Origin: an uncultured delta proteobacterium
GTDB lineage: Bacteria; Desulfobacterota; DSM-4660; Desulfatiglandales; HGW-15
Direction: 5' to 3'
NCBI GenBank assembly: GCA_963707125.1
Contig: CAVPOU010000004.1
Location: 511,234-575,233 of the forward strand
DNA: 64,000 nucleotides
Shown: positions 8,544-57,750 of the stretch, piece by piece
Layout: each line of letters opens with the position of its first letter
How positions within the stretch are numbered: the first letter of the stretch is position 1
The notes under the pieces: model-generated
The model's input: only the letters and a program-made list of their open reading frames with translations
Told to the model about the DNA's origin: nothing
Database searches by the model: none
Made by a program: the position numbers and the translations under genes

Positions 8544-8547
8544 TTTT

Positions 8548-10478: not shown

Positions 10479-10529
10479 AGCGGATCTCCTATGCCCCTTT
10501 CCTGAAATGGACTTCAGTGCTCATCTTAT

Positions 10530-12713: not shown

Positions 12714-12743
12714 TTGACTAAACCTCTTGTGTCAGGATTTCCT

Positions 12744-14583: not shown

Positions 14584-14675
14584 AGCGTGCGGGGGGAGGT
14601 TCCCTGACACCGGATGGAAGCTCTGAAAGCGTCACCGAGTAGCTCCAATGACCATGCATAAGAGGAACAAAGCAT

Positions 14676-15851
14676 ATGTTTCAAGGCTTAAGAGACCCTG
14701 TGTTGAAACCCTTTCATGGAACAAGGGGTAGAAGCTTTTTTTTGTGGGTCCCCCTTTTCTTCTTCTTCCTTTTCAGCCTCTCCTCCTGTTCTTCATCCAC
14801 TGCCATCCAGGGAACACCGGTCAATGAAGTGGCCACTCTTCAGGACCGTGTCGAAGTGACCAGGTTGCAGACCGAGCAAAACCTTGAGGCCTTGGCCAGG
14901 ATGAGCCAGGTGAAAGAGAACAGCGTCTTTAAGACGGTGGCCGGAATCCCTGAATATCGCATCGGCTCAGGCGATATTCTTGAGATCAGCTCCTACAACG
15001 GGGACAAAGTGACGGCGACGACCGTGACCGTGGACAGCAGGGGAAGAATCTCTTACTCCTTCCTGGATCACTTGAAAGTGGACGGACTGACGTCCAGCGA
15101 AGTGGACGAGCTCTTGACCGTCAAACTCTCCGCCTATGTGAGAGCCCCGCGCGTCAGCGTGCAGGTGAAGGAGTTTAACAGTAAGAGCGCAAATCTCATA
15201 GGAGAATTTTCTTCGCTTAGAAACGTGAGTTATGGAAAGGGAGGCAGCGGCCGGATCAATCTCAAGGGAAAGACCCCTCTTACGGATCTGATCGCTCTTG
15301 GAGGGGGATACACGCTGAACGCGGACATTAAGAACGTCAAGCTTGTGAGGAAGGGGAAATCCTACCTCATCAACCTCTACGACATTATTGAAAAAGGCGA
15401 TGAAAACCAGAATGTGATCATCGACGAGGCGGACGTGGTGAACATTCCCGAACTCCCAACCTATGGAGAAAGAGTCTACGTCTTGGGAGAGGTATTCGGC
15501 CAGGGCATCTATGCGCTCAAAGAGGCTCAGGATCTCTTGGCTGCCCTAGCCCTGGCGGGAAATACCACCAGGCTGGCGAAAGAGGAGAACACCCTCATTG
15601 TGAGGGGATATGAGCCGGGGAAACCGCCCCTTGTCATGATGGCGGATGTGAAGTCTCTTTTGAGAAAAGCCGATATATCCCAGAACGTTCGTCTCAAGGA
15701 TGGGGATCTTGTGTATGTTCCGAGGATGCTGATCGGAGACATCAACGACTGGATCATCAACATGACGCCTCTGCTTAACTTGATTCTCTATCCGGGCGAG
15801 TTTGAGGACTATTATGCCGGGACCAGGGTTCTGCAGTATAACAAAAAATAG
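14676..15851 (+). CDS. Polysaccharide export outer-membrane lipoprotein (Wza-like)
   Basis: Signal peptide with lipobox LSSC. Poly_export-like segment EYRIGSGDILEI...VDGLTSSEVDELL...APRVSVQV. Confidence 0.8.
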   Translation: MFQGLRDPVLKPFHGTRGRSFFLWVPLFFFFLFSLSSCSSSTAIQGTPVNEVATLQDRVEVTRLQTEQNLEALARMSQVKENSVFKTVAGIPEYRIGSGDILEISSYNGDKVTATTVTVDSRGRISYSFLDHLKVDGLTSSEVDELLTVKLSAYVRAPRVSVQVKEFNSKSANLIGEFSSLRNVSYGKGGSGRINLKGKTPLTDLIALGGGYTLNADIKNVKLVRKGKSYLINLYDIIEKGDENQNVIIDEADVVNIPELPTYGERVYVLGEVFGQGIYALKEAQDLLAALALAGNTTRLAKEENTLIVRGYEPGKPPLVMMADVKSLLRKADISQNVRLKDGDLVYVPRMLIGDINDWIINMTPLLNLILYPGEFEDYYAGTRVLQYNKK

Positions 15852-15882
15852 CGCCACGTGATCCTTTACCAGGAGAGGCTCC

Positions 15883-18800
15883 TTGCCCCAGTACGATATC
15901 AACCTCAGAGAATACTGGCGTATTCTTAAGAAAAGAAAATTCATCGTTTTCTTTGTAGGGATCGTTCTGGGCGTCTTCAGCACCGCCTTTGCTGTTCTTA
16001 AAACTCCCACTCCGATTTACACTTCTGTGTGCAGCATCAAATTTGAAAAAGAAACCACGGTCGAAGGGCTCTACGCAAAGACCATCACCTGGTCAGGGGG
16101 CGATGACATTGAGACCCAGATCTCCGTCATCAAGAGCTTCACGATTTTTGAAAAAGTGGCTCAACGACTGGGTCTCATTCCGAAGGCAAGCGTGCCCGCA
16201 GGCAGTCCTGCCAAAGGCAATCTCGCCAGAGTCGTTGATAATCTTCAATCCAAAGTTGAAGTCACCCGGCAAGGGATGACCAACATTCTCAACATCCAGG
16301 TAAAGGATGCGGAACCTGCTTTTGCCCAGAAACTTGCGAACACCGTTGCAGCGACCTACAAGGACCTCCATTCGGAGGTGCAGATGAAGCGGACCCTCGA
16401 TGCCATAAAATACATTGAAGATCAGCTGGTCCAGGTCAGGCAGAGACTCCGCGAGGCGGAAGAAGAGTTCAATCGATTTACCCAGAACAATCAACTTCTT
16501 TCAGTCGACATCCAAAGCGAGAAGCTTCTTTCAAGGTCACAGGATGTGCAGAATGAAATCCGGAGGCTGGTTGAAAACAAAGGGGAACTCCAGAGCATGG
16601 CGGCTCGCCTGGACAAATTCATTGCAAACCCTTCCGTCCAGGGCAACTTCTATTCCGCCAAAGCAAGCCCCCAGTATCAGTCGGCCAATGACACTCTTAC
16701 GGAGCTTCAGCTCCGCAGAGAAACCCTCTTGAAGGATTTTACTCCTCTTCATCCGGAAGTCGTGGATGTGGGACGGAAAATTCTTGAGGGTGCGCGGAAA
16801 ATGAGGCTTCTTCTCCTGTCTCAAATTGGAGACCTTGAAAAACAGGAAGGGGACGCAAGGAGCGAGCTTCAGGAGCTCGACAGAAAGTCCAGCGCCCTGA
16901 TGGAGAAAAAACTGGAATATGATCGTCTGAAAAGGAAGGTAGAGCTCTACAACGACATGACCACGCTCCTGGAGCGGAAAAACCAGGAGGCTTTGATCAA
17001 GAAAGCTGAGAAACCGGAAGAAGTGACGGTTGTCAAACAGGCTCTTTTCCCCACGGAGCCGATCAATCCTCCGAAAACTGCGACCACAGGAGCCATGGGG
17101 CTGATCATCGGTCTGGTTCTGGGGCTGATTGCCGCATTCGTTGTCGAAACTTTTGATACGTCCATTGGAGCCATTGAGGATGTGGAGGAGACTCTCAAGA
17201 CGCGGGTCCTGGGGGTCATCCCTCAAGCGGATGCCAAGGAGGTGCATGAAAGCTTCAAAGGAAAACTCCCTGAGGGTATGGAAGTGCTTTCTCCTGCCCA
17301 GATGGTGAATATGGTGGCCCACTATGCTCCCAAGAGCATGATGGCCGAGAGCTTCCGGGGATTGAGAACCAATATTCAGTTCAAAGACACTGAGAATGAA
17401 ATCAAAACGATCGCCGTGACGAGCGCTTCTCCTCAGGAAGGGAAGACGCTCGTTTCCGTCAACCTGGCGATCACCATGGCTCAGGCGGGGTTGAAGACGC
17501 TTCTGATCGGGTCGGATATGAGAAAGCCGATGATCGCCAGAGTGTTCGGCGTCGAGCAGACCCCAGGCCTTTCCGAGATCCTTTTGGGGAACTCCCCTTG
17601 GCGCGATGCCGTCCAGACGGTTACAGATATGATTGTCGGGAAAATGTCTCTGGATGAGGTGCTGCTGACCCCCGGGCTCGACAATCTGCACCTTATTGCG
17701 GCCGGATCCATTCCCCCGAATCCTGCGGAACTCGTGGAGTCGAAACGCCTCAAGGAATTCATCGAAGAAGCAGAGAGCGAGTACGATCTCATCCTGTTCG
17801 ATTCTCCTCCGATTCTGTCAACCGCCGATGCGGCGATTCTCGGCTCGAAGATGGACGGCGTCCTTTTCGTCTACCGCCTTGGAACGGTGTCCAGAGGCTT
17901 GCTGAAGAGATCGACGGCCCAGCTTGAGCAGGTGAATTGTCGTATCTTGGGTGTCATTCTCAATGGGATGAAGCCGGAGGTCAGTCCGGATTTTCACAAT
18001 TTCAAGTATTACAAGTATTACTCCTCTTATGGCGAGGAAGGGAAAAAGGGAGAAAAACCCAAGAAAGGCCTCCCCTTCTTCAGAGAGAACCCGATCTCTT
18101 CGTGGGGAAGGACAAAAAAGGCAAGGAAGAGCAAGAAGTCCATCATGACCTCCTCCCTTGCGGCTGTGGGTCTCATCCTTCTTGCGGGTGGCCTTCTCTG
18201 GCAGTTTGGGATCATTGATCCCCTGAAGATGCTGGATTCAGCAAGGCCGACCGCAGGCAAGAACGCACAATCGCTTAAGCAGAAAGTCCCCCCAAAAACG
18301 TCCCCTCAACTCCCGTCTTCCCCGCCCCCCTCCCAGGTGAAAGAAGAAAGCGCGAAAACCCTGGTGACGAAAGGCCCTGGGGCGGAAGCGAAACAGGAGC
18401 CTGCGCCGGAAGTTAAGGTCCAGGTCGTTGTGGAGAACTCGGTGCAGGAAGCCAGATCGCCTGCCCCAGCCACAAAGCTGGCGGTTGAGAAGAAGGTGAT
18501 CTCTGAGGAGAAAGCCAGGGAGAGCACTCCGGTCCTTCAGGGTGAGTACCCCTATTCGATTTATCTCAGCTCCTTGAAGACTCTGGACCAGGCAAAGAAA
18601 GCAGTTTCCGTCTATGCCAAGAAAGGAATCACGTCCTACTGGGTGAAAGTCAATTTCAAAGAAAAGGGCGAGTGGTACAGGATCTACGCGGGTCATTTCA
18701 AGGATCGAGAAGAGGCTGAGAGTTTCTCACGAGCCCACGAGATAACCGAAACAAAGCCCCTGAAAACCGAGTATGCCAACCTCGTTGGAGTTTATTCTCA

Positions 18801-18984
18801 ATTGAGGGACTTTGATGGCAAGGTCAAAGCCATTTCAGATCTCGGCTACTCTTCTTATGTGGTCAAAGGAAACGATGGGAAATTAAAACTGCTCGTGGGC
18901 ACCTATGTGACGGAAGAAGCCGCCGAGCAGCAGCGTCAGGATCTTATGGCCAGGGGAATTGAAAACCGGGTCATTAAACGTTAA
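15883..18984 (+). CDS. Polysaccharide co-polymerase / BY-tyrosine kinase (Wzc-like) fused to a third TM, Pro-rich linker and two SPOR domains
   Basis: TTG start after AGGAGAGG. The N-terminus is Wzz-like, with 2 TM segments and a coiled coil. Kinase motifs: P-loop SASPQEGKT, LLIGSDMRKP, LILFDSPP. Tyr cluster FKYYKYYSSY at 18001-18030 and a TM at ~18130-18215. SPOR-like repeats YSIYLSS...WYRIYAGHFKDREEAE and YANLVGVY...KLLVGTYVTEEAAE. Confidence 0.85.
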   Translation: MPQYDINLREYWRILKKRKFIVFFVGIVLGVFSTAFAVLKTPTPIYTSVCSIKFEKETTVEGLYAKTITWSGGDDIETQISVIKSFTIFEKVAQRLGLIPKASVPAGSPAKGNLARVVDNLQSKVEVTRQGMTNILNIQVKDAEPAFAQKLANTVAATYKDLHSEVQMKRTLDAIKYIEDQLVQVRQRLREAEEEFNRFTQNNQLLSVDIQSEKLLSRSQDVQNEIRRLVENKGELQSMAARLDKFIANPSVQGNFYSAKASPQYQSANDTLTELQLRRETLLKDFTPLHPEVVDVGRKILEGARKMRLLLLSQIGDLEKQEGDARSELQELDRKSSALMEKKLEYDRLKRKVELYNDMTTLLERKNQEALIKKAEKPEEVTVVKQALFPTEPINPPKTATTGAMGLIIGLVLGLIAAFVVETFDTSIGAIEDVEETLKTRVLGVIPQADAKEVHESFKGKLPEGMEVLSPAQMVNMVAHYAPKSMMAESFRGLRTNIQFKDTENEIKTIAVTSASPQEGKTLVSVNLAITMAQAGLKTLLIGSDMRKPMIARVFGVEQTPGLSEILLGNSPWRDAVQTVTDMIVGKMSLDEVLLTPGLDNLHLIAAGSIPPNPAELVESKRLKEFIEEAESEYDLILFDSPPILSTADAAILGSKMDGVLFVYRLGTVSRGLLKRSTAQLEQVNCRILGVILNGMKPEVSPDFHNFKYYKYYSSYGEEGKKGEKPKKGLPFFRENPISSWGRTKKARKSKKSIMTSSLAAVGLILLAGGLLWQFGIIDPLKMLDSARPTAGKNAQSLKQKVPPKTSPQLPSSPPPSQVKEESAKTLVTKGPGAEAKQEPAPEVKVQVVVENSVQEARSPAPATKLAVEKKVISEEKARESTPVLQGEYPYSIYLSSLKTLDQAKKAVSVYAKKGITSYWVKVNFKEKGEWYRIYAGHFKDREEAESFSRAHEITETKPLKTEYANLVGVYSQLRDFDGKVKAISDLGYSSYVVKGNDGKLKLLVGTYVTEEAAEQQRQDLMARGIENRVIKR

Positions 18985-19028
18985 CCATCATGTCTTGAGT
19001 CTCCTTCCTGAGGGATCATTATCCACCC

Positions 19029-20462
19029 ATGAAAGCGATCTTGAAAAAGCTTTTTTCCCAAGGAGAGCAGAGAGACAGAGGTCAGGCGACGCTTGAGTTC
19101 ATTCTGCCTCTCCTCCTTCTGCTCTTCGTCCTCATCGCGTTCGCCATGGTGATTCCTGCTCTCACTCCGACCAAGACTCTCGCCGTTGCAGGGGCCGTGA
19201 TCATTTTTGTTCTGAGTTTTGTCAGTACCCAGATCGCCCTCTACATCCTGATCTTTTCCATGCTCTTGAGCCCTGAATTCATTGTGGGAGCAACGGAAGG
19301 CGGCACCCTGGGCCGCGGCATCACTCTCCGGGCGGACGATTTTCTTGTGGCGATTATAGGGTTCAGCTGGCTCGCCAGGATGGCGATCAACAAGGAACTG
19401 GGGTTTTTTCTAAAGACCTCTCTGAACCGGCCCATCGCTTATTACATGATGGTGTGTGTGGCTTCCACGCTTCTGGGCGCCCTGTTCGGAAGGCTGGATC
19501 TGAAGATGGGCTTTCTCTTTGTCCTGAAGTACTTTGAATATGTCGTCATCTATTTCATGGTGGCCAACTACCTCAAGGACAGAAAGCAACTAAAGACTTT
19601 TGTGTGGGCTATGCTGCTCACCTGCCTGATTGTCTCGGTCATCTCCATGGCCAAAATCCCGGAAGGCGGAAGAATCTCTGCTCCCTTTGAAGGAAAAGTC
19701 GGTGAGCCGAACACGTTTGGCGGTTATCTTGTCTTTATGATGAGCATCGCAACGGGCCTCGCTCTCATGGAAGAATCCTTTCGCAATCGCCTTATCGCTT
19801 TTTTCTTGGTGATCCTTTTCAGCATCCCTCTTCTTTACACGCAGTCCAGAAGCTCTTATCTGGCAGCGATTCCGGCTGTATTGAGTTTTCTATGGTTATC
19901 CAAAAGAAAACAGTGGATTCCTCCGGTCCTGTTACTCGTGGGATTGCTTCTCCCTTTCGTGGCACCCAAGGTCACCAAGGACCGGGTGTCCTACACCTTT
20001 ACCCAAGGCATTGGTCGTCCGGATGCCGTCACCGTTGCCGGCGTGCAGCTGGACACGTCGACTTCCGCAAGAATCAAGAGCTGGGAAGAAGCGGTTCGAG
20101 ACCTGGTCCAACACCCCGTGCTCGGATTCGGTGTCACGGGATACCGGTTTGTGGATGCCCAGTATGTAAGGGTCGCCGCGGAGACCGGATTCCTTGGTCT
20201 GCTCATTTTTCTCCTTTTGCTGGGTACAATACTCAAGGAGTCCTACCGGGTTTTCAAGGCGAGTGAGGATCCCTTTGATAAGGGGCTGGCCATCGGTTTT
20301 CTTGCGGGCTTCACCGGGCTTCTGTTTCATGCCATAGGAGCGAACACCTTCATCATTGTGAGGATCATGGAACCCTTCTGGTTCATCGCCGCCATGGTGA
20401 TGATGATTCCATCCCTTGAAAAGGACCGGAAGGGCAAGGCAGAAGAAGGCAAAAGAAGCTAA
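19029..20462 (+). CDS. O-antigen ligase/polymerase-like (Wzy_C) membrane protein
   Basis: 477 aa and polytopic. The loop YTQSRSSYLAAI is followed by further TM segments. Confidence 0.7.
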   Translation: MKAILKKLFSQGEQRDRGQATLEFILPLLLLLFVLIAFAMVIPALTPTKTLAVAGAVIIFVLSFVSTQIALYILIFSMLLSPEFIVGATEGGTLGRGITLRADDFLVAIIGFSWLARMAINKELGFFLKTSLNRPIAYYMMVCVASTLLGALFGRLDLKMGFLFVLKYFEYVVIYFMVANYLKDRKQLKTFVWAMLLTCLIVSVISMAKIPEGGRISAPFEGKVGEPNTFGGYLVFMMSIATGLALMEESFRNRLIAFFLVILFSIPLLYTQSRSSYLAAIPAVLSFLWLSKRKQWIPPVLLLVGLLLPFVAPKVTKDRVSYTFTQGIGRPDAVTVAGVQLDTSTSARIKSWEEAVRDLVQHPVLGFGVTGYRFVDAQYVRVAAETGFLGLLIFLLLLGTILKESYRVFKASEDPFDKGLAIGFLAGFTGLLFHAIGANTFIIVRIMEPFWFIAAMVMMIPSLEKDRKGKAEEGKRS

Positions 20463-41481: not shown

Positions 41482-41724
41482 ATGAGTACGGTAAGGATGA
41501 ACATCACGATCCCTGAGCAGTTGGCCCGCAAGCTGGACCAGATGGTAAGCCCAAGAAAAAAAAGCACCTTCATTGTTAAGAGTTTGGAGGAGTGCATTCA
41601 CAGGATGGAACGCGAAGAGCTCAAAGCCAATCTTAAGGAAGGATACAAAGTAAGAAGGGACGAAGGGCTAAGGATTGCCGGGGAGTTTCGAAAAGTGGAT
41701 CTGGAGGGATGGGATGAGTATTAG
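41482..41724 (+). CDS. mazE: RHH/CopG-type antitoxin
   Basis: 80 aa. MNITIPEQLARKLD is a ribbon-helix-helix start. The gene overlaps the toxin start. Confidence 0.75.
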   Translation: MSTVRMNITIPEQLARKLDQMVSPRKKSTFIVKSLEECIHRMEREELKANLKEGYKVRRDEGLRIAGEFRKVDLEGWDEY

Positions 41725-42058
41725 AAGAGGGGAGATCTATATTGCAGCCCTTGATCCTGTGGTCGGCAGAGAAATCTCCAAGACGCGTCCTGTGGTGGTG
41801 GTTTCTAACGACTTGAATAATCAATTCGCGGCCACGGTGACTGTACTCCCGATCACCTCTATGAATCTTGACAAGATTTATCCTTTTGAGGTTTTTCTGC
41901 CAAAAGGCTCCGGCGCCCTACCCAAGGATTCGAAAGTCAAAGCAGATCAGATACGCACCCTCGATAAAGCTCGGATAGCCAAACTGTTGGGGAAAGTGGA
42001 TCAGAAAAAAATCACGGCGATCGATAAGGCGGTGAAAATACATTTGGGGCTGGAGTGA
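41714..42058 (+). CDS. mazF: MazF/PemK-family endoribonuclease toxin
   Basis: IRRGEIYIAALDPVVGREISKTRPVVVVSND...VLPITS. ATG 41714 overlaps the antitoxin stop. Confidence 0.85.
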   Translation: MSIRRGEIYIAALDPVVGREISKTRPVVVVSNDLNNQFAATVTVLPITSMNLDKIYPFEVFLPKGSGALPKDSKVKADQIRTLDKARIAKLLGKVDQKKITAIDKAVKIHLGLE

Positions 42059-42504
42059 TGAAAACAAGAATACAGGAGACTGAATACAGTATGAAAGCAG
42101 ACCACAGAGGACCCCAGTTGAATAGTCCTTCGCCCCAGTGAAATAGGCCTTCAGGATTTCACCCCGATGGAATAGAACTGCAACATCATTCCATAGGGCA
42201 GGCGGGGCAAAATTCAACGGGGCAAGCCGGATTATCAGGATTATTGTGTTTCGAAACATAAAGAGCAAACATCTTTGATCCTGTTAATCCTGTCTAAAGA
42301 AGCTCGCATCTTACCTCAGTTCGCTCGACCCCTCATCGATCGGAAATTGCGCATGCAATGGGGGCGTGGACTCGTGAAATTCTGGAACAAGCTTGATGGG
42401 TTCAGAAGTTTCAGGGTACTAATGCGAGAGGCACAAGCAGGCACGGACAAACCTAAATCGTTTGTCCGTGCCACCCAGTCTTGTCACTCGTTACTCGTCA
42501 CTGA
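42059..42504. repeat. Composite repeat block: ACAG heptads, expanded H2 hairpin (42112-42228), GGATTAT/ATCCTGT inverted words (42229-42298), H1 hairpin (42439-42476), CACTCGT heptads (42484-42504)
   Basis: Read directly. H1 reads gcacggacaaacctaaatcgtttgtccgtgccaccc. Confidence 0.8.
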
Positions 42505-43905
42505 CTACGGTTTGAGGCCCAATTCGTCGATGCGGCCGAGCAGGGTTTTGTAGCTCACGCCAAGCACTTCAGCTGCCTTTTTCCTGTTCCACTGAGTTTT
42601 GGCGAGCACATCCACGATGGCCTGGCGCTCCGCTTCAGAGACATAGGTCTTGGTAATTTTCTTGATAGAAAAACGGTTTTCCCTAATCAGCCTCTCGATT
42701 TTCTCATCGGACCAACCGACGACCGTCCCCAAGTCTTCCATTGAGGCGTGTTCCCCCTTCTTCTGGAGACTCTCCAGGCTGAGCTCCCTGAACACAAACT
42801 CCCAGTCTTTAAGCGCGACCGCGCGGCGCACCACATTTTCGAGCTCTCTCACATTTCCCGGCCACTGGTAGGATTGAAGATGCTTCAGTATCTTCCCAGG
42901 GATCTCCAGGATGTCTTTCTTCAGCTCAAGACAGTACTTGTTGACAAAATAGTAAATCAGTATGGGGATGTCCGGTTTCCTTTCCCTCAAGGGCGCAGCC
43001 TGGATATGAATCACATTAAGGCGGTAGAAAAGATCTTTTCTGAAGAGACCGTCCCGCACCTTTCTCTGAAGATCCGAATTGGTCGCAGCCACAACCCGGG
43101 TATCCACGAACTTGTCGTAGATCCCTCCAAGCCTAGCGAAAGCTTTATCTTCAAGGACCTGGAGGAACTTTGCCTGGAGAGAGAGCGAGAGGTCTCCGAT
43201 TTCATCTATGAAGAGCGTCCCGTTGTGGGCCAGCTCCAGTCGCCCAGGCTTGTTCTTGTGGGCGCCTGTAAACGCCCCCTTCTGAAAACCAAAGACCTCG
43301 CTTTCAAGAAGTTCATCCGGCAAGGCACCGCAGCTGATTTTTACCAGAGGCCCCTGGTTTCGCTGCGAATGGTAATGGACGGAGCGCGCGATCAGCTCTT
43401 TTCCGGTGCCCGTCTCCCCGGTGATCAGCACAGTAATGTCTTTGGCCGCTACCTTTTGAATCTTCAGTTTGATGTTTCTGATCGCCTCACTGTGCCCGAT
43501 AATGACCGGATAGTCCGGTCGCATTTTGTATTCATCCCTGAACTTCAAAGCGCTCTGTACTGTCTCGGCAAATTCTGCGCCCTCCAGATCCGTTCCAATG
43601 GGGTAGATCCCTTCAAAAGGCACGATCTCCGGACCCTCGGCCAGCGGCACTCCGCCACAGGAGGTAAGAACAGGCATGAAAGGGGTGATGATTTTCAATT
43701 TGTGAATGCACTGGATGCATGTCTCCGCATCGAGCGAAGGGCCGAGGACAGCCAGGTCAGGCTTCAAGGCTGCCAGCTCATCAATGGCCACATTCGGCCT
43801 TGCCGTAAAGCAGTGGACGAATCCGAACTGCTTGACTCTTTCAGCCCAGGCCTCGGCTAATGAAGGATCTGAATCAATGACAAGGACGTTAATTCCATCG
43901 GCCAT
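42505..43905 (-). CDS. Sigma-54-dependent transcriptional activator (NtrC family) with degenerate receiver domain
   Basis: GETGTGKE, GAFTGA, C-terminal HTH AAEVLGVSYKTL. The receiver region reads KPDLAVLGPSLD where DLVLLD is expected. Confidence 0.85.
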   Translation of the reverse strand: MADGINVLVIDSDPSLAEAWAERVKQFGFVHCFTARPNVAIDELAALKPDLAVLGPSLDAETCIQCIHKLKIITPFMPVLTSCGGVPLAEGPEIVPFEGIYPIGTDLEGAEFAETVQSALKFRDEYKMRPDYPVIIGHSEAIRNIKLKIQKVAAKDITVLITGETGTGKELIARSVHYHSQRNQGPLVKISCGALPDELLESEVFGFQKGAFTGAHKNKPGRLELAHNGTLFIDEIGDLSLSLQAKFLQVLEDKAFARLGGIYDKFVDTRVVAATNSDLQRKVRDGLFRKDLFYRLNVIHIQAAPLRERKPDIPILIYYFVNKYCLELKKDILEIPGKILKHLQSYQWPGNVRELENVVRRAVALKDWEFVFRELSLESLQKKGEHASMEDLGTVVGWSDEKIERLIRENRFSIKKITKTYVSEAERQAIVDVLAKTQWNRKKAAEVLGVSYKTLLGRIDELGLKP

Positions 43906-44254
43906 GGCGCAAAACCCTCGGCTTTCAGCGGTCAGCTGTCAGCTTCAAAGAAAGAATACAGAAGACAGAATTCAGAATCAGAACCCCAATCACGAAAACA
44001 CCCCAGTTGAATCGTCCCCCTGACGGGGGAATTCAACGGGACAGGCGAAAACTGGAAAACACGAAAGAACATTGCACCACGGACAAGCAAAATCAGCTTG
44101 TCCGTGCCACCCAGTCTTTTCAAGCTTGTCCGCTCTTAGCAAGCATCCCCATTGTTACCACGGACAACCATCCTCCCGAGGCAGATAAGAATCAGTTTGT
44201 CCGTGCCACCGCATCGCAATCTCTATGCTCTCTGCTCCACGCCCTACGCTGTCT
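43906..44254. repeat. Composite repeat block: CAGCGGT words, ACAGAAG heptads (43950-43985), H2 hairpin (44000-44050), GAAAACnn octamers, two H1 hairpins (44077-44111, 44158-44210)
   Basis: Read directly. Confidence 0.8.
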
Positions 44255-46675
44255 TCATGCCGCCAGGGCGCGCGAAATAGCCTGGCTCAGCTCCCCGATG
44301 CCGCAGGGCTTCGTGATGTAGCCCTTGATCAAGCGCTTGGTGCTTTCGTCAATCCCGTTGGGCCCGCTTTCCTCGTAACCGGACACCATGATGATCCTGG
44401 CATCAGGATCTATTTCCACAATTTTTCTGGCACACGTCACCCCGTCCATCTTAGGCATGCCCCTGTCCATGAGCACCACATCCGGGTCCCACTCACTGTA
44501 GTTCTGCAAAGCGTCCAAAGGCCTCTCCACCGGGATGGCTTCGTACCCGAGTTTCTTGCAGACGGCGGTCAAGGCATCAAGGGCCGGCTTTTCATCGTCA
44601 ACAATCAAAACCTTCTCGCCCCTCCCGGGAATGATCTCTCTTGCAGGTTCCCCCATTTCGGTGGTCTCGGGCGCTGCATAGGAGAAGGAGATTCTGAAAT
44701 TAGCCCCTTTGCCAGGTTTCGACGACACAGAGATATCCCCTTTGTGTTCCTGCACAATCCCGTGCACCGTTGAAAGGCCCAGTCCCGTCCCTTTCCCCAC
44801 TTCCTTCAGAGTGAAGAAGGGGTCGAAGATTCTCTCAACCGTCTTCTCATCCATGCCGATCCCTGTGTCACTCACGACGGCTGTCACCTTGTTTCCCTTT
44901 CTCTTGGCCTCAACAGTCAACTTGCCACCGTTCGGCATGGCATCGTTCGCATTGCTGTAAAGATTCATGAAGACCTGACTCAGCAGAGACCTGTTGCCCT
45001 TCACGAAGAGGTCCTTGTCCAGGCTGAGCACGATTTCGATGTTCCTGTTCAAAACCCTCGCGATGATTTCATGGGTTTGCTTGATCACATCGGCAAGGTC
45101 GAGGTGAACCATCTGGTATCCGCCACCCCTCCTGGAGAAATGCAGGAGGTTGTTGATGAGATCCACGCCTTTTTCCACTGAGTCGAAGATGTTGGTCGTG
45201 AGATCCGCAATGTCCGGTTTCTCGCCGCAGACCAGTTCCATATACTCGGTATTGCCTGAAATCGCCTGCAAGATGTTTCGAAAATTATGGGCTATCCCTC
45301 CAGCAAAAGCCCCGATGGATTCCATCTTCTGGGCCACGAGAAGCTGCTCCTGCAGAGCCTTCTGCTCCCTTTCCGCCTTTTTCTTTTCCGTCACATTATC
45401 AAAGATCGCCACGATCTCTCCGGAAGGCAGCCGGTAAATGTAGTATTCTCTCCAACCAGTGATTTCTTCGCCTTCGTGAAACGTGATGGATCCGCTCTCC
45501 GGGTTTGCGGTTCGCCAGACTCGCCTGAAACTCTCCAGGATGTCAGATCCTTTGTAGAAGGGCAATATTTGAAAGAGCGTCTTGTTACCGATGATCTCTT
45601 TGTCGTCAATGTTCTCAATTTTCCGAAAAGCCCGGTTCAGATTGAGAATGGTGAAATCTTCGCCGTCATTCACCGTTCTGAACACCATAACGCCGCTGCT
45701 CATGTGATCGAAAATGGCCTTAAAGCGCACCTCGCTCTCGCGAAGCTTTTCCTGGGTCTCCATGAGAACCTTGGTCCGATCCTCCACAAGGCTCTCGAGA
45801 TTGGAATACAGGGTCGCGTTCTCTATGGCGATGGCTGCAGGGCTGCTCAGTGCCGACAGCAGGGAGAGGTCCTCTTTTCGGAAACCATACGGTTTGCTCA
45901 CAGAGTCCACGTAGATGGCCCCTCGAATTTTGGACTTACTCATCAGAGGCACGCACATCACGGACTTGATCTTCATGAGCTCCATACTTACGGAACGATC
46001 GTCCTTGTCCTCCCTCATCGTGTTGGACATCATCACGGCTTTGCCTTCTTTGAGGACCTTGTTGACTACCGTCCGGCTGTAGGGCCGGGCTCCGTGCTTG
46101 GAGTCGTCTTTCGACCTTGAAATCACCCGGGTGATCTTGCCTGATCGGGGATCGACCAGCAGGATAGCTCCCCGATCGATTCTTTTTAGAAGTTCAAAAA
46201 TCTGATCCAGGATCTTCTCGAAGAGATCGCTCAAATCAAGGGACTGCATCAGCATCTTGGAGACGCTGTAAATCAGTTCGAGATTTCTCAGAGAGGTCTT
46301 GGGCCGATCCGTTTCCACCGTGTCATTGAGAGGATTGGACGGATCAACAAATTTCTGAAGCGAAGCGATATCCCTTTTGTACTCCTTGCCCAGGGAGAAG
46401 AAAACATTGCCGATGCCGATCGGCACCCCTTCCCTCACCTCGAAGACCTTGCCGGCGTTTATCTGTTTGTCCCGGATATAGGTCCCGTTGGTGCTCCGCA
46501 AGTCTTCAATGAAGTATTTCTCGCCTTTTTGGACAATTTTGAGATGCCTGCGGGAGACATGCCTTTCCTTGATCTGGATATGGTTGTCCGGCGCCCGCCC
46601 CACAAAGATGACCTCTTCCTTGAGATCATGGGTCTCGCCCTTCTCGGGTCCACTCAAAAAAAAGAGTTTGCTCAT
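44255..46675 (-). CDS. Soluble hybrid sensor kinase: FHA-GAF-PAS-HisKA-HATPase-REC
   Basis: FHA N-terminus (VIFVGRAPDNHIQI...STNGTYI). H-box FAGGIAHNFRNIL. N/G boxes YSNANDAMP, DTGIGM, GTGLGLS. REC domain VLIVDDE...LMDRGMPKMDG...TKP. No TM segments seen. Confidence 0.85.
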   Translation of the reverse strand: MSKLFFLSGPEKGETHDLKEEVIFVGRAPDNHIQIKERHVSRRHLKIVQKGEKYFIEDLRSTNGTYIRDKQINAGKVFEVREGVPIGIGNVFFSLGKEYKRDIASLQKFVDPSNPLNDTVETDRPKTSLRNLELIYSVSKMLMQSLDLSDLFEKILDQIFELLKRIDRGAILLVDPRSGKITRVISRSKDDSKHGARPYSRTVVNKVLKEGKAVMMSNTMREDKDDRSVSMELMKIKSVMCVPLMSKSKIRGAIYVDSVSKPYGFRKEDLSLLSALSSPAAIAIENATLYSNLESLVEDRTKVLMETQEKLRESEVRFKAIFDHMSSGVMVFRTVNDGEDFTILNLNRAFRKIENIDDKEIIGNKTLFQILPFYKGSDILESFRRVWRTANPESGSITFHEGEEITGWREYYIYRLPSGEIVAIFDNVTEKKKAEREQKALQEQLLVAQKMESIGAFAGGIAHNFRNILQAISGNTEYMELVCGEKPDIADLTTNIFDSVEKGVDLINNLLHFSRRGGGYQMVHLDLADVIKQTHEIIARVLNRNIEIVLSLDKDLFVKGNRSLLSQVFMNLYSNANDAMPNGGKLTVEAKRKGNKVTAVVSDTGIGMDEKTVERIFDPFFTLKEVGKGTGLGLSTVHGIVQEHKGDISVSSKPGKGANFRISFSYAAPETTEMGEPAREIIPGRGEKVLIVDDEKPALDALTAVCKKLGYEAIPVERPLDALQNYSEWDPDVVLMDRGMPKMDGVTCARKIVEIDPDARIIMVSGYEESGPNGIDESTKRLIKGYITKPCGIGELSQAISRALAA

Positions 46676-47058
46676 GAGTTCTTCTCCCCTTTGGAGCGAC
46701 TCAGCAATGTTTCAATATGGTCCTTGAGCAACGACATCCTGACGGGTTTGGCTAAAACAAGATCCGCCTTTTTCTCCAGCGCTGCGGCCTCAGGTTCCTT
46801 GCCGAAGCCTGTGATGGCAATGACCGGGACGCGTGGCTTCTTCTCCTTGATGGCACTCACGACCCCGACACCGCTCACATAGGGCATCACGATGTCCGTG
46901 ATCACGAGATCGTAGGTTTCGGTTTCGAGTTTTTTCAACCCCTCCATCCCGTCCACAGCAGTGATCACCTCGTACCCCACTTTCATGAGGTGCTTCACCA
47001 TGATAGACAGGACATCCGCGTCGTCCTCGATGATAAGAATCGTCTTTGATTCAGCCAT
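46672..47058 (-). CDS. Single-domain response regulator (CheY-like)
   Basis: ILIIEDD...LVITDIVMP...AITG...AKP, with canonical residues. ATGA overlap with the kinase gene. Confidence 0.85.
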   Translation of the reverse strand: MAESKTILIIEDDADVLSIMVKHLMKVGYEVITAVDGMEGLKKLETETYDLVITDIVMPYVSGVGVVSAIKEKKPRVPVIAITGFGKEPEAAALEKKADLVLAKPVRMSLLKDHIETLLSRSKGEKNS

Positions 47059-47290
47059 GGCTTGCCCGTTATGCGTTGTTCGCTATCCGTTGTTCGCTAT
47101 CTGTTATCCGTTATCTGTTTATATGACAATAAGCGTTCGCCCTCACGTTCTGTCTTCTTGTTTCTTGTTTTGAACATTTTAGGCACTTTAGTCACTTCCC
47201 TATGCTGACCTCCGACTTCTGACCTCTGGTGTTCTGTCATCTGATTATTACTGACTGTTCACTGGTTTCATGCTGTCTTTTGTATTCTTT
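47059..47290. repeat. Composite word arrays: CGTTRTY heptads (47067-47122), TTCTKGT words, GGCACTTTAGTCACTTC (47182-47198), CTGACYT heptads
   Basis: cgttgttcgctatc is repeated twice, then tgttatc/cgttatc/tgtttat follow. A 17-nt block is identical to 56692-56708. Confidence 0.8.
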
Positions 47291-47291
47291 C

Positions 47292-47540
47292 CTATTTCAT
47301 ACTTCCCAAATATGCAAGGTCCTTTTCCTGCGTGTTCTTGGTTCCTATGGCCACGATCAGTTTCCTGGCCTGAGAATCCTTCTGATAATAGAGCCTGCCC
47401 GAGTAGGCGAAGGGGATCTCGATGAAATCCGTCTTTCCGCCTTTGCCCAGATATCTTTCCAAGCCGTTCAGTGTCAAAATATAGCAAACCGGCGGCAAGA
47501 AGATGCACAGAAAGAGTATTTTGAAAGGGAAATTCTTCAT
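47292..47540 (-). CDS. Hypothetical small secreted/membrane protein
   Basis: MKNFPFKILFLCIFLPPVCYIL is a hydrophobic N-terminus. No clear RBS, and overlapping alternative frames exist. Confidence 0.35.
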   Translation of the reverse strand: MKNFPFKILFLCIFLPPVCYILTLNGLERYLGKGGKTDFIEIPFAYSGRLYYQKDSQARKLIVAIGTKNTQEKDLAYLGSMK

Positions 47541-47548
47541 TAAGCATA

Positions 47549-47872
47549 CAGTAGCGATCAGCAACAGCCAGTAATCAGTGATCAGTAATCAGTGATCAGT
47601 GATCAGTGATCAGTAATCAGTAATCAGAAGAAGCTATCAGCCCTTCGACCATGCTCAGGGTCTGCGACAGGGCAGGCGAAAACTGGAAGACACGAAAGAA
47701 GGTCCTCTCACAGACAAAAAAATTCGTTTGTCCGTGCCACCAAGTCTTTTCTCGCCTCACTGCTTTGCCCGCTCTTGATGAGCATCCGTCACTCGATCGT
47801 TCTATGCGTTTATCTATACTGGCCTGGCCTTTGGAAAATATTCCTCTGTGCTCTCTGTGAGAGACAAGGTTT
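47549..47872. repeat. ATCAGTR heptamer array (8 contiguous units, 47574-47629) followed by CCTTCGA-CTCAGGG motif (47641-47665), GAAAACTGG/CACGAAAG words and H1 hairpin (47707-47743)
   Basis: 'atcag' starts at 47574 and recurs every 7 nt eight times. Confidence 0.9.
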
Positions 47873-50188
47873 TCAGCCGCTGATTTCTTTCAAAATCCTG
47901 CGGGCGTCGTCGGCTCCCTTGAAATTCGGGTCCAGCTGCAGGGCCTTTTCAAAATAGTCCTTGGCTTTTGCTTTGTCATTGTTTTTGTACTGGGCGAGTC
48001 CCATGTGATGGTTGGTCACCGGGTTCCCCGGATCCCTGGCAAGGCTGTCCTGGAACTCCGCAATCGCATTCAGCAAGCTGCCCTTCATGTAGTAGATATA
48101 ACCCAGGGTGTCCATCACCGCTGAACTGCTAGGGAGTTGTTCCTTTGCGATTTGTGCAAAGGTCAGGGCTTCGTCGATATTCCCGCCTCTCTCTGCAAGG
48201 TTCCATGCCAGGTTGTTGGCGGCCGGGCCAAAATCCTTCTTGATGTCCAGGGCTTTTCGATAGTAGGTTTCCGCTTTCTGGCCGTCCCCCTTCTGGTCGT
48301 AAATCGTTCCTACGGCCATGTACCCTGCGAGATACTTGGGATTCTTGGCAATCACACCCTCGTACTCCTTGATCGCTTCGTCGAATCGCTTTTCCCTGGC
48401 ATAAATCTCAGCCAACGCCACATAGGGAGCAGGATTGTTGGGTTCAGTTTCAATCGCTTTCTTGAACCGATCCTGTGCGGCCTTCGGATCCTTCTTCGCC
48501 AGGAAGATGTTCCCCTCCAGATACTCAATGAGGGCAAGACTCGCCGGTGAATCTGTGACCTTCTTCTTGTGGTCCTCACAGGCCTTCATGGCTTCATCGA
48601 ATTTCTTGTCCCGAACATTGAGCCCCACGATCAGAGCCAGGGCATCCGTCTGCTGAGGATTGAGTTCAAGGGCCGTGTTGAAGGATTTGAGGGCTTCGGC
48701 CAGACGGTTAGTAAGGTTGTAGATGAGCCCCAGCTGAATATAGGCGGGCGCATAATCCGCATCCGCCTGGATGACCTTGCTGTAAATCTCCTCTGCCCCT
48801 TTCATGTCTTTTTCAAGAACTTTCAAGCTCCCCAGATGCATCAGGACGCGGGTGTTTCGAGGGGCGATTTTCATCGCTGCATCGATCTGCTGCCGGGCAA
48901 GATCCGCATTCCGTTCATTGAGATAGAACTCTGCAAGAATGAGCCTTGCCTCCAGAAGTCCCGGATAAAATTCCACCGCCTTCAGAAGATCCTGCTGGCC
49001 CATTTTGGGATCGCCTTTCCCAATGTGAGACAATCCCCTGAAGTAGTGGGCCATGGAATTGCGAGGGCTCTCTCTCACCACCACGTCAAACCTTTCAAGG
49101 GCGTTCCCAAAATCCCTTCTCACGAGAAAGATCCGGCCCTTGAGAAAGTTGGCATCCACATGCCCCTTTTCTTTTTCGAGCACCTTATCGACGGTGGCTT
49201 CCGCGTCCTTGACTTTGTTGAAGTCAAACTGGAGTTCTGCCATGTTGACCAGCACGTTCGGGTCATCCTTCTTGATTTCCGCTGCCTTGTGCATAGCCTC
49301 CAGGGCGCGGTCATAGGATTTCATCCGCGCATAGTAAGCCGCCAGGTTCATCAGGGGCGTCACATCTCCCTGGGGCGCCGCCTCCACGGCCTGTAGATAA
49401 GTCTTCTCAGCCTGCTCGAAATTCTTTCTGCTCTCGTAGAAAAGGGCAAGCACGTGAAGGGTTTCATAAGTGGAGCCTGAGGCCTGGATCATCCTCTTCA
49501 GCTCCGCTTCGGCCTTGTCCCAGTCCCCTTTGCCGGCATAGATGCGCGAAAGCTCAATGTAAGGGACGCCTGAGGCAGGATCCAGCGCTATGGCCCTGAG
49601 GTAGGCCTCCTCTGCTTTGTCGGCTTCTCCTTTCAGGAGAAGCAGCCGGCCAAGGGAGAGCTGCGTGTTGAAATGGTTCGGGTTCAAAGAAGCCCCCTTT
49701 TCAAGGGTCTTGATCGCGCCGTCCAGATCTCTCTCCTGAACCTGAACACCGGAAAGGAGGCTCAGGGCTTCCACGCTGTCAGGCGACTTGGTGAGAATGA
49801 GCTCAGCCTTCTTTTTCGCTTCTTCGGTCTGTCTCCCCAGCAGGAGCATCTGACCTAGCTTGAGTTGGGCCTTGAGGTTGTCCGGGTTTGCTGAAACCGC
49901 CCTGGTGTAAGCTTGAAAAGCCTCCCTGGGCTCTTTCAGCTTCAGATAGGTCTCTCCTAATTCCAGATAGGCAGCGTCATGTTGGGGATCCAGCTGAACC
50001 ACGTTCTTGAGCTCGATGACCGCTTTCTTGAGCTCATTCTTTGAGATGTATTCCTTTGCCTTTTCGAAATGCTTCGCCTTCTTTTCCTCTTTGCTGGCGC
50101 ATCCGCTCCCAAAAAACAGAGTGAAAGAAACCAGCATCACCCAAACAAAGCCAAGAAAGAATCGTTGATGTTTCATGTCCCGCCTCAT
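47873..50188 (-). CDS. TPR-repeat lipoprotein, PrsT-like (PEP-CTERM-system type)
   Basis: Start at ATG 50188 follows GGGGGA. Signal peptide with lipobox FGSGC. About 20 TPR units across ~770 aa. Confidence 0.75.
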   Translation of the reverse strand: MRRDMKHQRFFLGFVWVMLVSFTLFFGSGCASKEEKKAKHFEKAKEYISKNELKKAVIELKNVVQLDPQHDAAYLELGETYLKLKEPREAFQAYTRAVSANPDNLKAQLKLGQMLLLGRQTEEAKKKAELILTKSPDSVEALSLLSGVQVQERDLDGAIKTLEKGASLNPNHFNTQLSLGRLLLLKGEADKAEEAYLRAIALDPASGVPYIELSRIYAGKGDWDKAEAELKRMIQASGSTYETLHVLALFYESRKNFEQAEKTYLQAVEAAPQGDVTPLMNLAAYYARMKSYDRALEAMHKAAEIKKDDPNVLVNMAELQFDFNKVKDAEATVDKVLEKEKGHVDANFLKGRIFLVRRDFGNALERFDVVVRESPRNSMAHYFRGLSHIGKGDPKMGQQDLLKAVEFYPGLLEARLILAEFYLNERNADLARQQIDAAMKIAPRNTRVLMHLGSLKVLEKDMKGAEEIYSKVIQADADYAPAYIQLGLIYNLTNRLAEALKSFNTALELNPQQTDALALIVGLNVRDKKFDEAMKACEDHKKKVTDSPASLALIEYLEGNIFLAKKDPKAAQDRFKKAIETEPNNPAPYVALAEIYAREKRFDEAIKEYEGVIAKNPKYLAGYMAVGTIYDQKGDGQKAETYYRKALDIKKDFGPAANNLAWNLAERGGNIDEALTFAQIAKEQLPSSSAVMDTLGYIYYMKGSLLNAIAEFQDSLARDPGNPVTNHHMGLAQYKNNDKAKAKDYFEKALQLDPNFKGADDARRILKEISG

Positions 50189-50301
50189 TAATCCCCCTTT
50201 TCTGTATCTACCATGGCTAAGTTCCACGGATTCCCGTGCACCCTTCACCCCGACAAAGTCAGCGCGGCCTGACAGTCCAACTTGATGAACCAAAGGGACT
50301 A

Positions 50302-50316
50302 GCAAGCTTCGGGCCA
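50302..50316 (-). promoter_or_regulatory. Sigma-54 (-24/-12) promoter TGGCCC-N5-TTGCT
   Basis: The reverse complement of 50301-50316 reads TGGCCCGAAGCTTGCT, ~110 nt upstream of ATG 50188. Confidence 0.6.
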
Positions 50317-50639
50317 CAGAACCGGAGAGGAACCCGCATCGAAGCATCCGCCTGCGCGTAGCCGCTTCGGCTAAGGCGAGCGAAATTCGAAAACCAGAAC
50401 TAAGGCTAATGCATAGATATTTAACTTGGTATTGTAGCGACTAAGCAAATTAAAGTCAAATTCTTTGTTTTAACCACACGCTTTAGCTGCTTTCTGCCTC
50501 TCTGATATCTCAATGACAAGACGCAAGCATGCTTTATCATATTTACAAATCAATGGACAATGCAGCCCAAGTGTTATAGGCTTCTTGTATGAAAAGGCTC
50601 AGGCCCACGCTAGGTTTTTGTTGAGAAAGGAATTAAGCT

Positions 50640-51521: not shown

Positions 51522-51582
51522 GGCCATGTCGCCGATTGGGCAATTTGCCCACAGTCGGCTCATGCTCTCCGGGAGCGTTCTT

Positions 51583-51780
51583 TCAGCACCTGCTTTCGCC
51601 GGTCCCCACCATGTCCTGCTGCAGCATTTGCAGAGGTGCTATGGAGTCAACGAATCCCCGAATTGTCCTGAGCTCCATCATGGTGCTGCAGCTGAAATAT
51701 TTCACCGGGCCTTCATAGTCCTCGAACACATTGTGGTCGAGGTTCACATCCCTTCCGCAAGAAACGCATTTGATTTTCAT
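51583..51780 (-). CDS. Hypothetical 65-aa protein with N-terminal CxxC knuckle
   Basis: AAGGGGGG RBS. MKIKCVSCGRDVNLDH...; the second knuckle is degenerate (CSTM). Confidence 0.5.
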   Translation of the reverse strand: MKIKCVSCGRDVNLDHNVFEDYEGPVKYFSCSTMMELRTIRGFVDSIAPLQMLQQDMVGTGESRC

Positions 51781-57505: not shown

Positions 57506-57750
57506 GACACAACCCCCTACGAAACCCTATCTCCCGTTTGGTGGCACGGACAAGCGAACTGAGCTTGTCCGTGCCGCCAGAGATCTTGTGCTTCTTCGTG
57601 CTCACTTCCCATTGTCCAACTTCCTGTATCCTTTCACGGACAAACAGAATTCGTTTGTCCGTGCCACCCTCATTTCTTTGCATTAACCAGCATGCAGAAT
57701 CCACCCACGGACAAGCAAAGTTCGCTTGTCCGTGCCACCGTATGCCTGCT
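57506..57750. repeat. Three H1 hairpins in 245 bp (57540-57578, 57635-57668, 57705-57740)
   Basis: Each reads CACGGACAARC-loop-GYTTGTCCGTGCC. Confidence 0.9.

Follow-up and report, generated by a model that had tools for sequence, protein, structure and literature searches.

A 64-kb stretch of DNA from an uncultured delta proteobacterium (contig CAVPOU010000004.1; the whole stretch is referred to here as the window) carries on its minus strand a block of genes for a sigma-54-dependent signaling system, built around a sigma-54 activator whose receiver-like domain has Gly in place of the phospho-acceptor Asp. On balance we favor the interpretation that this block is a clade-specific signaling module of uncultured Desulfobacteraceae and that in relatives it forms the regulatory arm of an XrtA-type PEP-CTERM/exopolysaccharide (EPS) locus. 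Within that clade of uncultured sulfate reducers, the module is likely to regulate the genes of the exosortase matrix. Four module genes are intact in the window, encoding, in 5' to 3' order, a tetratricopeptide repeat (TPR) lipoprotein, a single-domain response regulator (RR), a hybrid kinase, and the sigma-54 activator, or enhancer-binding protein (EBP), and a fifth gene, here called X, is present as a remnant:

47873-50188, minus strand: PrsT-like TPR lipoprotein, 771 aa, start ATG at 50188
47292-47540, minus strand: gene X remnant, 82 aa, located by tblastn with the X proteins of L007, L008, and L009
46672-47058, minus strand: single-domain CheY-like RR, 128 aa
44255-46675, minus strand: hybrid kinase, 806 aa
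42505-43905, minus strand: EBP, 466 aa

The stop codon of the RR gene and the start codon of the kinase gene overlap as ATGA, and the activator protein was found with identical sequence on 13 independent contigs. The observations on which our interpretation is built are of four kinds: domain content, residue conservation, synteny, and motif conservation.

Related loci were identified by looking up divergent homologs and by pattern scans, which named uncultured Desulfobacteraceae metagenome-assembled genomes (MAGs). Wherever a related locus has enough sequence, the genes for the RR, kinase, and activator adjoin one another, and nearly all of the loci have the TPR gene upstream of them. In 7 lineages (L007, L008, L009, L013, L037, L039, and L040), some or all of a set of PEP-CTERM/EPS features are found directly downstream of the activator. 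The PEP-CTERM proteins in these relatives exceed the Pfam PF07589 cutoff and end in tails of the form VPEPATMLLLG...RRK, while the export, chain-length, ATPase, and tyrosine kinase genes have XrtA/PEP-CTERM families (pepcterm_export, ChnLen, ATPase, and TyrKin) as their best NCBIfam matches, with scores that fall just below the NCBIfam cutoffs. Near the PEP-CTERM genes is a conserved, unannotated peptide of 47-49 aa, HY[LI]NPLHVYCRLRD[LI]G..K..A.F[LM]CR.YER.IF.RY, which matches no Pfam family. Strong promoters of the form TGGCACA-N4-TTGCT stand 300-600 nt beyond the activator stop codon in 9 relatives, and most of them have 1 to 3 copies of a dyad, approximately TGTAAT-N4-TACCAC-N5-TGGCAAAA-N-ATTACA (core form TTnCCAC-N5-TGGCAAAA), 150-200 nt upstream. 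This combination of dyad and -24/-12 promoter is the layout described for PEP-CTERM genes by Haft et al. (PMC1569441). The dyad, promoter, and peptide follow one another at these positions in the related loci:

L007, 11659-12046: dyad, -24/-12 promoter, peptide
L008, 11419-13603: dyad, -24/-12 promoter, peptide
L009, ~13000-13419: dyad, -24/-12 promoter, peptide
L037, 13841: dyad, -24/-12 promoter, peptide
L039, 18618-19790: dyad, -24/-12 promoter, peptide
L040, 11732-13230: dyad, -24/-12 promoter, peptide
L013, 6734-6922: dyad and promoter; 10340-10480: peptide

In relatives, a second activator of 320-360 aa that lacks an N-terminal regulatory domain stands at the head of the XrtA-type EPS export genes, and a -24/-12 site, [AT]GGCACG-N4-TTGCA, precedes the export gene behind it. 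We considered this short protein as a possible true PrsR and rejected it, its score of 274 bits against a cutoff of 502.6 being generic. It is encoded at:

L007, 12450-13460: second short activator
L008, 14149-15231: second short activator
L037, 14828-15832: second short activator
L040, 13810-14772: second short activator

PrsK, PrsR, and PrsT constitute the PEP-CTERM regulatory system (TIGR02916, TIGR02915, and TIGR02917, respectively; Haft et al. 2006, PMC1569441), and the resemblance to PrsT proposed in a preliminary description made from the window's sequence alone was borne out: the TPR lipoprotein scores 419.9 bits with TIGR02917 against a curated cutoff of 312.2. The L007 ortholog also passes (338 bits), while another TPR protein of the window reaches just 102 bits. 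Along with many TPR matches in Pfam, the protein has a single N-terminal hydrophobic segment (aa 8-32) followed by a Cys (FFGSGC, then ASKEEKK) that is conserved in orthologs, in a lipobox that is atypical at the -3 residue (G-S-G-C). The mechanically called open reading frame (ORF) extends to 50347, and this extension is not conserved in orthologs; we fixed the start at ATG 50188 because of the orthologous N-termini, the ribosome-binding site AAAGGGGGA, and the signal peptide with its Cys. Of the companions of PrsT, none (PEP-CTERM protein, PrsK, or PrsR) is present in the 64-kb window, while the 7 related lineages have PEP-CTERM/XrtA-type EPS genes adjacent to the module.

The other two candidates for membership fall outside their families. 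The PrsR model (TIGR02915) gives the activator 307.6 bits against a cutoff of 502.6 and matches only aa 134-464, the AAA+/helix-turn-helix (HTH) part, with a score no better than those against NifA, AtoC, and NorR. The activator has the AAA+ sigma-54 interaction domain and Fis-type HTH of a PrsR and lacks both a score above the hidden Markov model cutoff and a phosphorylatable receiver, so that it is not a PrsR family member and by score is a generic EBP. Likewise, the kinase reaches 108.6 bits with the PrsK model (TIGR02916) against a cutoff of 300, through its kinase core only; FHA-GAF-PAS domains stand where a transmembrane (TM) kinase would have the PrsK-specific N-terminal domain, and the kinase is not a PrsK family member. 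The module therefore consists of one PrsT-like member and two proteins outside PrsR and PrsK. The earlier picture of a PrsK/PrsR/PrsT-like module with a different kinase holds for its genomic setting, given the synteny in 7 lineages, and fails for the family assignment of EBP and kinase.

In relatives, a fifth gene, X, lies between the TPR and RR genes. It encodes a protein of ~385 aa, full length in 12 lineages, in which a presumably periplasmic loop of ~115 residues lies between 2 TM segments; the protein also has a long cytoplasmic coiled coil. X has no Pfam or NCBIfam family and belongs to a set of 673 "hypothetical" homologs in Desulfobacterota MAGs. A reading of its C-terminus as RelE/ParE-like was dropped, there being no Pfam or NCBIfam support and an AlphaFold confidence of <50 in that region. 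In the window, residues 1-31 are fused in frame to residues 333-382, joining the first TM segment to the conserved C-terminal 50 residues with ~300 codons gone. L037, L038, and L024, whose EBPs are 81-83% identical to that of the window, keep the full 387-aa X, so the deletion in the window must be recent; L011, L015, L029, and L030 have lost X entirely. The deleted segment includes Thr293, which is invariant in the cytoplasmic part of X; in relatives, protein X is one candidate docking target for the FHA domain. The preliminary description had a membrane kinase replaced by a soluble, FHA-linked one; the kinase is indeed soluble, and the replacement is incomplete as a description in that relatives encode the additional membrane protein X.

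L037 shares the upstream neighbors of the window module (transaldolase [TAL], SLT, and pgsA) and has both X and the EPS locus, which shows that the ancestor of the window's lineage had the module, X included, joined to this EPS locus. The module of the window, as its sequence reads, is detached from the EPS locus, internally deleted in X, and partly eroded. On the downstream side of the EBP, a PemK toxin-antitoxin pair is found together with an arylsulfotransferase-like gene and with purine/molybdenum genes. The PemK/MazF-type toxin (41714-42058, plus strand) has its antitoxin upstream (pair 41482-42058) and is convergent with the EBP; L009 and L013 have an equivalent pair (70-73% identity) between the EBP and the presumed target promoter. 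A separate EPS export cluster is found on the plus strand at 12714-20462. Besides an AAA protein that resembles pepcterm_ATPase (227 bits, less than the cutoff), it encodes an HD_5 protein, a Poly_export protein of 391 aa, a Wzc-like tyrosine kinase of 1033 aa, and a Wzy_C protein.

A repetitive extragenic palindrome (REP)-like intergenic repeat, GGTGGCACGGACAA..., is present in 11 copies in the window versus 0.27 expected, often as inverted pairs or hairpins, and 3 copies (41186, 44042, and 47673) have in common a longer tail, TTCTTTCGTGTnTTCCAGTTTTCGCCTG. Heptanucleotide tandem repeats (e.g., CAGTAAT/CAGTGAT, 8.4 copies) lie directly 5' of the X-remnant, RR, and EBP starts, and similar heptamer-rich spacers occur in related loci. 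These repeats are placed as follows:

2217, 42437-42475, 44098-44210, 47728, 56535, and 57540-57739: REP-like copies
47665-47745, minus strand: REP-like copy between the prsT-like stop codon and the X remnant
44040-44212, minus strand: two REP-like hairpin repeats in the kinase-EBP spacer, which contain TGGCACG and are not promoters
47569-47627, 47062-47119, 43921-43983, and 42483-42502: heptanucleotide repeats

Several findings weigh against assigning the module to PEP-CTERM/EPS control. A PEP-CTERM C-terminus, the dyad upstream activating sequence (UAS), and the conserved small peptide are all absent from the whole 64-kb window, and no exosortase, PrsK/PrsR, or Ser/Thr kinase was found among its other large ORFs that were scanned, so the EPS control that had been proposed for this genome is not borne out by the window. 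The search for a partner Ser/Thr kinase suggested earlier likewise returned none in the scanned window ORFs or in the neighborhoods of relatives that were examined, and no histidine phosphotransfer (HPt) protein is encoded in the locus or nearby. In L010, the RR-kinase-EBP set adjoins flagellar genes and has no TPR gene. The second, truncated activator of relatives could be the user of the dyad sites. Five of 13 lineages (L007, L009, L040, L015, and L017) have no sigma-54 site before the prsT-like gene, with sigma-70-type promoters alone, and in Aquincola transcription of prsT is not RpoN-dependent (PMC9850573). Finally, the organisms compared are all uncultured MAGs and the evidence is computational.

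The state of the window copy bears on a different explanation, that it is an orphaned, eroding remnant whose regulators either act on nothing beyond themselves and the prsT-like gene or have been rewired to an unrelated regulon. The reduction of X to 82 aa, the REP-like hairpins inserted between genes, the presence of the PemK pair and unrelated metabolic genes at the place taken by PEP-CTERM genes in relatives, and the loss of the EPS neighborhood in L038 and L011 as well would all be expected of such a remnant. Set against this, none of the 4 large ORFs is disrupted and their catalytic residues are conserved. The identical protein was also seen on 13 independent contigs, and the sigma-54 site has been kept. 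Targets could also lie elsewhere, since only 64 kb of the genome is visible, and a different EPS export cluster is present at 12714-20462. We regard orphaning as an unlikely account of the window module.

The preliminary description had noted TGGCCC-N5-TTGCT at 50302-50316, ~110 nt upstream of the prsT-like start, and had placed the gene behind a -24/-12 promoter. The match is real and is the best in the window. Read along the minus strand, TGGCCCGAAGCTTGC occupies 50316-50302, with a last T at 50301; 114 nt separate its -12 GC from the ATG downstream. The GG and GC are 10 nt apart, as in the TGGCAC-N5-TTGCW pattern of sigma-54 promoters, and the site is upstream of and co-oriented with the gene. 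A sigma-70-type promoter, joint-best of the region and best on the minus strand, lies farther upstream:

50301-50316, minus strand: candidate sigma-54 (-24/-12) promoter TGGCCCGAAGCTTGCT, from the weighted consensus scan and conservation
50431-50459, minus strand: sigma-70-type promoter TTGACT-17-TACAAT, 10/12 matches

With a weighted sigma-54 consensus, TGGCCCGAAGCTTGCT is the sole site scoring at least 17.9 on both strands of the window (128 kb scanned); it scores 18.9, and shuffled sequences would be expected to give ~0.4 sites at or above that value. In L011, L037, L038, L008, L025, and L028, the ortholog of the TPR gene is preceded by TGGCC[CT]G-N4-TTGCT, so that the site is conserved in 7 of 13 lineages as a 16-nt island that includes an unusual C at position 5, within flanks that cannot be aligned and at distances of ~55 to ~200 nt from the start codon. 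L039 has a weaker version. Most lineages have an equivalent of the sigma-70 site, with TTGAC/TA-17-TATATT found in L007, L009, L028, L037, and L040.

These data also have to be weighed against the possibility that TGGCCC-N5-TTGCT is not a working promoter, the prsT-like gene being transcribed from the sigma-70 site (50459-50431) alone and the activator having its targets elsewhere. That the loose pattern TGGC-N7-TTGC occurs at chance level in the window (3 matches vs 2.86 expected) would agree with this, as would the near-consensus and more widely conserved sigma-70 promoter, the 5 lineages in which the -24/-12 motif is missing, the RpoN independence of Aquincola prsT (PMC9850573), and the lack of the dyad UAS upstream of the prsT-like gene. 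Yet the candidate is the only high-scoring site in 128 kb, in the right orientation and at the right distance, and the island has been kept in 7 lineages while its surroundings diverged beyond alignment, which makes a nonfunctional site improbable in our view. The likeliest arrangement suggested by the sequences is a dual promoter, with basal sigma-70 expression of the prsT-like gene and an activator-dependent boost. The candidate promoter proposed earlier is present in about half of the lineages, is missing in 5 of 13, and shares the gene with a conserved sigma-70 promoter. In relatives, little space separates the genes for the TPR protein, X, RR, kinase, and activator, so that the activator-dependent promoter would feed back positively on the module.

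Some sigma-54-like sequences nearby were set aside. The REP-like repeat contains the -24 consensus TGGCACG and could mislead promoter scans; the TGGCACG sequences in the TPR-X and kinase-EBP spacers belong to such hairpins, have the wrong GG-GC spacing, and were rejected as sigma-54 promoters. L038 has a perfect sigma-54 consensus, TGGCACGACACTTGCT, at position 1230, ~50 nt upstream of a 65-aa ORF. This ORF is also called at about 51562-51759 (minus strand) of the window, which has no such sigma-54 site.

The activator itself is composed of two parts:

43516-43905, minus strand: pseudo-receiver domain, with the Gly55 codon at 43741-43743
42505-43515, minus strand: sigma-54 AAA+ core and Fis-type HTH, with Walker A (GETGTGKE), GAFTGA loop, and lid

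In Pfam it matches Sigma54_activat (PF00158, 221 bits), AAA_lid_14, and HTH_8 (PF02954), with no receiver at default thresholds, and Walker A, Walker B, and the GAFTGA loop are all kept in the core. The N-terminal 133 residues searched alone give 17.4 bits with Response_reg against a Pfam cutoff of 30.2. Gly55 aligns opposite the phospho-acceptor Asp of Spo0F and YycF with phmmer, and the same placement was obtained in the alignment with NtrC that had been proposed as a check, made here with MAFFT and including CheY, Spo0F, and the two bona fide receivers of the window. That alignment also places Gly/Ile at the conserved Lys position and reduces the acidic pair to a D-S-D remnant. Both losses claimed in the preliminary description, of the acceptor Asp and of the Lys, are thereby corroborated, and together they make classical phosphotransfer to the activator implausible, as had been proposed. 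Gly55 is nearly invariant in a 19-sequence alignment (one Ala) with homologs down to 58% identity, the motif PD[LIV]A[VI]LGPS recurs across aligned homologs, and the best 120 homologs (58-94% identity) have no precomputed PF00072 match. Also invariant is Cys66, located a short distance past Gly55 in what is predicted to be the third helix.

An AlphaFold (AF2) model built from the homolog alignment (pLDDT 76.7) has a receiver-like alternation of strands and helices, although the alpha4-beta5 region is disordered. When the PDB was searched with Foldseek, the model matched receiver domains, including those of RR468, NtrC, NtrX, CheY, and Spo0F as well as the aspartate-less ones of FleQ (8p53) and FlrA (8h5v), at TM scores of 0.6-0.7 normalized to the target. 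By alignment and model, the N-terminal domain is therefore a pseudo-receiver, or aspartate-less receiver. A profile search of 1.84 billion representatives returned 12 proteins at E<=1e-30 and 38 at E<=1e-10, so the family appears narrow by sequence. The remoter activators found with the same profile also lack the acceptor Asp, so the loss of this residue is not unusual for activators in this region of the tree. One such set (P0272-P0369) comprises sigma-54 activators of ~460 aa, with E values of 1e-12 to 1e-6, the motif C[LF]DNL...PDL[VI]I.G, and no acceptor Asp, and suggests that Asp-less activators make up a broader superfamily. It is very improbable that the activator belongs to an ordinary two-component pair with the acceptor shifted to a neighboring acidic residue, such as Asp59 in GPSLD: an Asp does lie 4 residues past Gly55, and the DSD stretch keeps its first and third residues, both acidic, but the Asp59 position varies among homologs (D, E, or G), the Lys is absent, no Thr/Ser aligns at the T position, Response_reg is below threshold, and remoter relatives have no Asp at all in that strand.

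The signaling partners of the activator, by comparison, appear complete. The RR has the full DD/D/T/K pocket in alignment and scores 83.4 bits with Pfam Response_reg, in keeping with its earlier description as a canonical single-domain regulator coupled by ATGA upstream of the kinase. The kinase has no hydrophobic or TM segment and is soluble; its N-terminal FHA domain and its own receiver, both noted earlier, were recovered with Pfam among the following domains:

aa 24-89: FHA
aa 146-285: GAF
aa 317-430: PAS
aa 455-518: HisKA
aa 561-665: HATPase_c
aa 689-800: REC

The phospho-Thr-binding residues of the FHA domain (GR, SxxH, and N), the H-box AHNFRNILQAI, and the DD/D/S/K residues of the REC domain are each invariant across 13 orthologous kinases. 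The intact FHA pocket argues for a phospho-Thr partner, and Ser/Thr-kinase input to the module is a reasonable inference from these residues. In the 83%-identity relative L037, the kinase is called as 2 ORFs at 7312-9733, a 672-aa kinase and a 132-aa receiver, which represents either a frameshift/assembly error or a natural split.

The phosphate flow, the control of the activator in trans, and the assignment of activators to promoters are what we infer, as follows. The ancestral module would have had the order prsT-like lipoprotein, membrane protein X, CheY-like RR, soluble FHA-GAF-PAS hybrid kinase, and pseudo-receiver sigma-54 activator, and in relatives it would fill the place of the proteobacterial PrsK/PrsR/PrsT at an XrtA-type PEP-CTERM/EPS locus. 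Cytoplasmic cues would be read by the GAF and PAS domains of the kinase, with FHA docking on a phospho-Thr partner, and the kinase would autophosphorylate at the H-box His and pass the phosphate to its own receiver and/or the CheY-like RR. Because the activator is Asp-less (Gly55, no Lys), we expect it to be controlled in trans, most plausibly by binding of the phosphorylated RR or of the kinase to the pseudo-receiver, or otherwise through the amount of activator. Given that the activator cannot accept phosphate, that a complete kinase and a separate receiver are nevertheless always encoded with it, and that the locus has no HPt, the simplest model is that a phosphorylated receiver contacts the pseudo-receiver. 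A hexamer of active activator would then open -24/-12 promoters, which in relatives would be those of PEP-CTERM protein genes and the 47-49-aa peptide, behind the dyad enhancer sites. In about half of the lineages, the window included, a further -24/-12 promoter at the prsT-like gene, atop a constitutive sigma-70 promoter, may create positive feedback.

The literature on pseudo-receivers offers alternatives, namely, the abundance of a constitutively active protein, redox switching, and Ser/Thr phosphorylation (PMC12632262), and analysis of the activator points to the invariant Cys66 as a possible redox switch site under the second of these. A more elaborate scheme is a "split response regulator," in which the pseudo-receiver, having lost its chemistry, only docks and the CheY-like RR takes over the receiver function in trans, pairing with it once phosphorylated by the FHA hybrid kinase. 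The envelope signal would come from X and the PrsT-like lipoprotein, and the FHA domain would allow gating by a Ser/Thr kinase encoded elsewhere. We put this forward tentatively and consider it rather unlikely as a whole.

PEP-CTERM/exosortase systems are widespread in sediment and biofilm bacteria. To our knowledge, their regulation is known for the proteobacterial PrsK/PrsR pair only, and mostly by prediction. The module indicates a different sensory front end (FHA hybrid kinase, free receiver, and pseudo-receiver activator) with similar output across an uncultured Desulfobacteraceae clade. We found no FHA kinase or pseudo-receiver activator tied to exosortase systems in the literature, nor this combination. 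New here are the ancestral fifth gene X with its 82-aa remnant and the absence of a PEP-CTERM target beside the window module. Pseudo-receivers have been reviewed as common yet mechanistically unresolved, and the module would be a concrete, conserved case of the switching of a pseudo-receiver on a sigma-54 activator, which the same review calls a mystery (PMC12632262). The comparative set also yields testable cis-elements, i.e., dyad sites and -24/-12 promoters, plus the conserved 47-49-aa peptide. Interest is tempered in that each domain is ordinary and the window copy is eroded and detached.

Among known systems, the module is closest in setting to PrsK/PrsR/PrsT. It has a TPR lipoprotein that passes the PrsT model, with a kinase and a sigma-54 activator in tandem beside it, and in relatives it adjoins EPS export genes and PEP-CTERM proteins behind an enhancer-like site and -24/-12 promoter. 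Unlike PrsK, a membrane protein with a PrsK-specific domain, the module kinase is soluble, has FHA-GAF-PAS domains, and carries its own receiver, and unlike PrsR, the activator has a pseudo-receiver and a generic EBP score. The module further differs in adding a separate CheY-like RR and, ancestrally, the membrane coiled-coil protein X, and in having a -24/-12 site at the prsT-like gene itself in many lineages. In Aquincola, floc formation needs prsT, prsK, and RpoN1 (PMC9850573).

The activator shares with FleQ and FlrA a receiver-fold N-terminal domain without a phospho-acceptor on an AAA+ sigma-54 activator, both being structural matches (8p53 and 8h5v, respectively). FleQ governs exopolysaccharide genes as well. 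In contrast to FleQ, the activator has no match to the Pfam FleQ domain and no FleN-like partner nearby, its acceptor position is Gly rather than the commoner Glu/Asn-type substitution of other pseudo-receivers, and its gene always accompanies those of a complete kinase and a separate receiver. Its affinity to FleQ and other pseudo-receiver activators is one of kind rather than of family.

The kinase is similarly comparable to Myxococcus xanthus EspA (FHA-PAS-PAS, NF052573), another soluble hybrid kinase with an N-terminal FHA domain and a C-terminal receiver. EspA has been linked to the Ser/Thr kinases PktA5 and PktB8. The module kinase scores 195.1 bits with the EspA model against a cutoff of 1400 and is not a member, although this is still among its better NCBIfam matches; it has GAF in place of one PAS, its partners differ, and the output is a sigma-54 activator rather than the turnover of MrpC. 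The resemblance to EspA is one of architecture only. Should the split response regulator prove true, the module would be an undescribed four- to five-component alternative to PrsK/PrsR for the PEP-CTERM/exosortase matrix in sulfate-reducing sediment bacteria.

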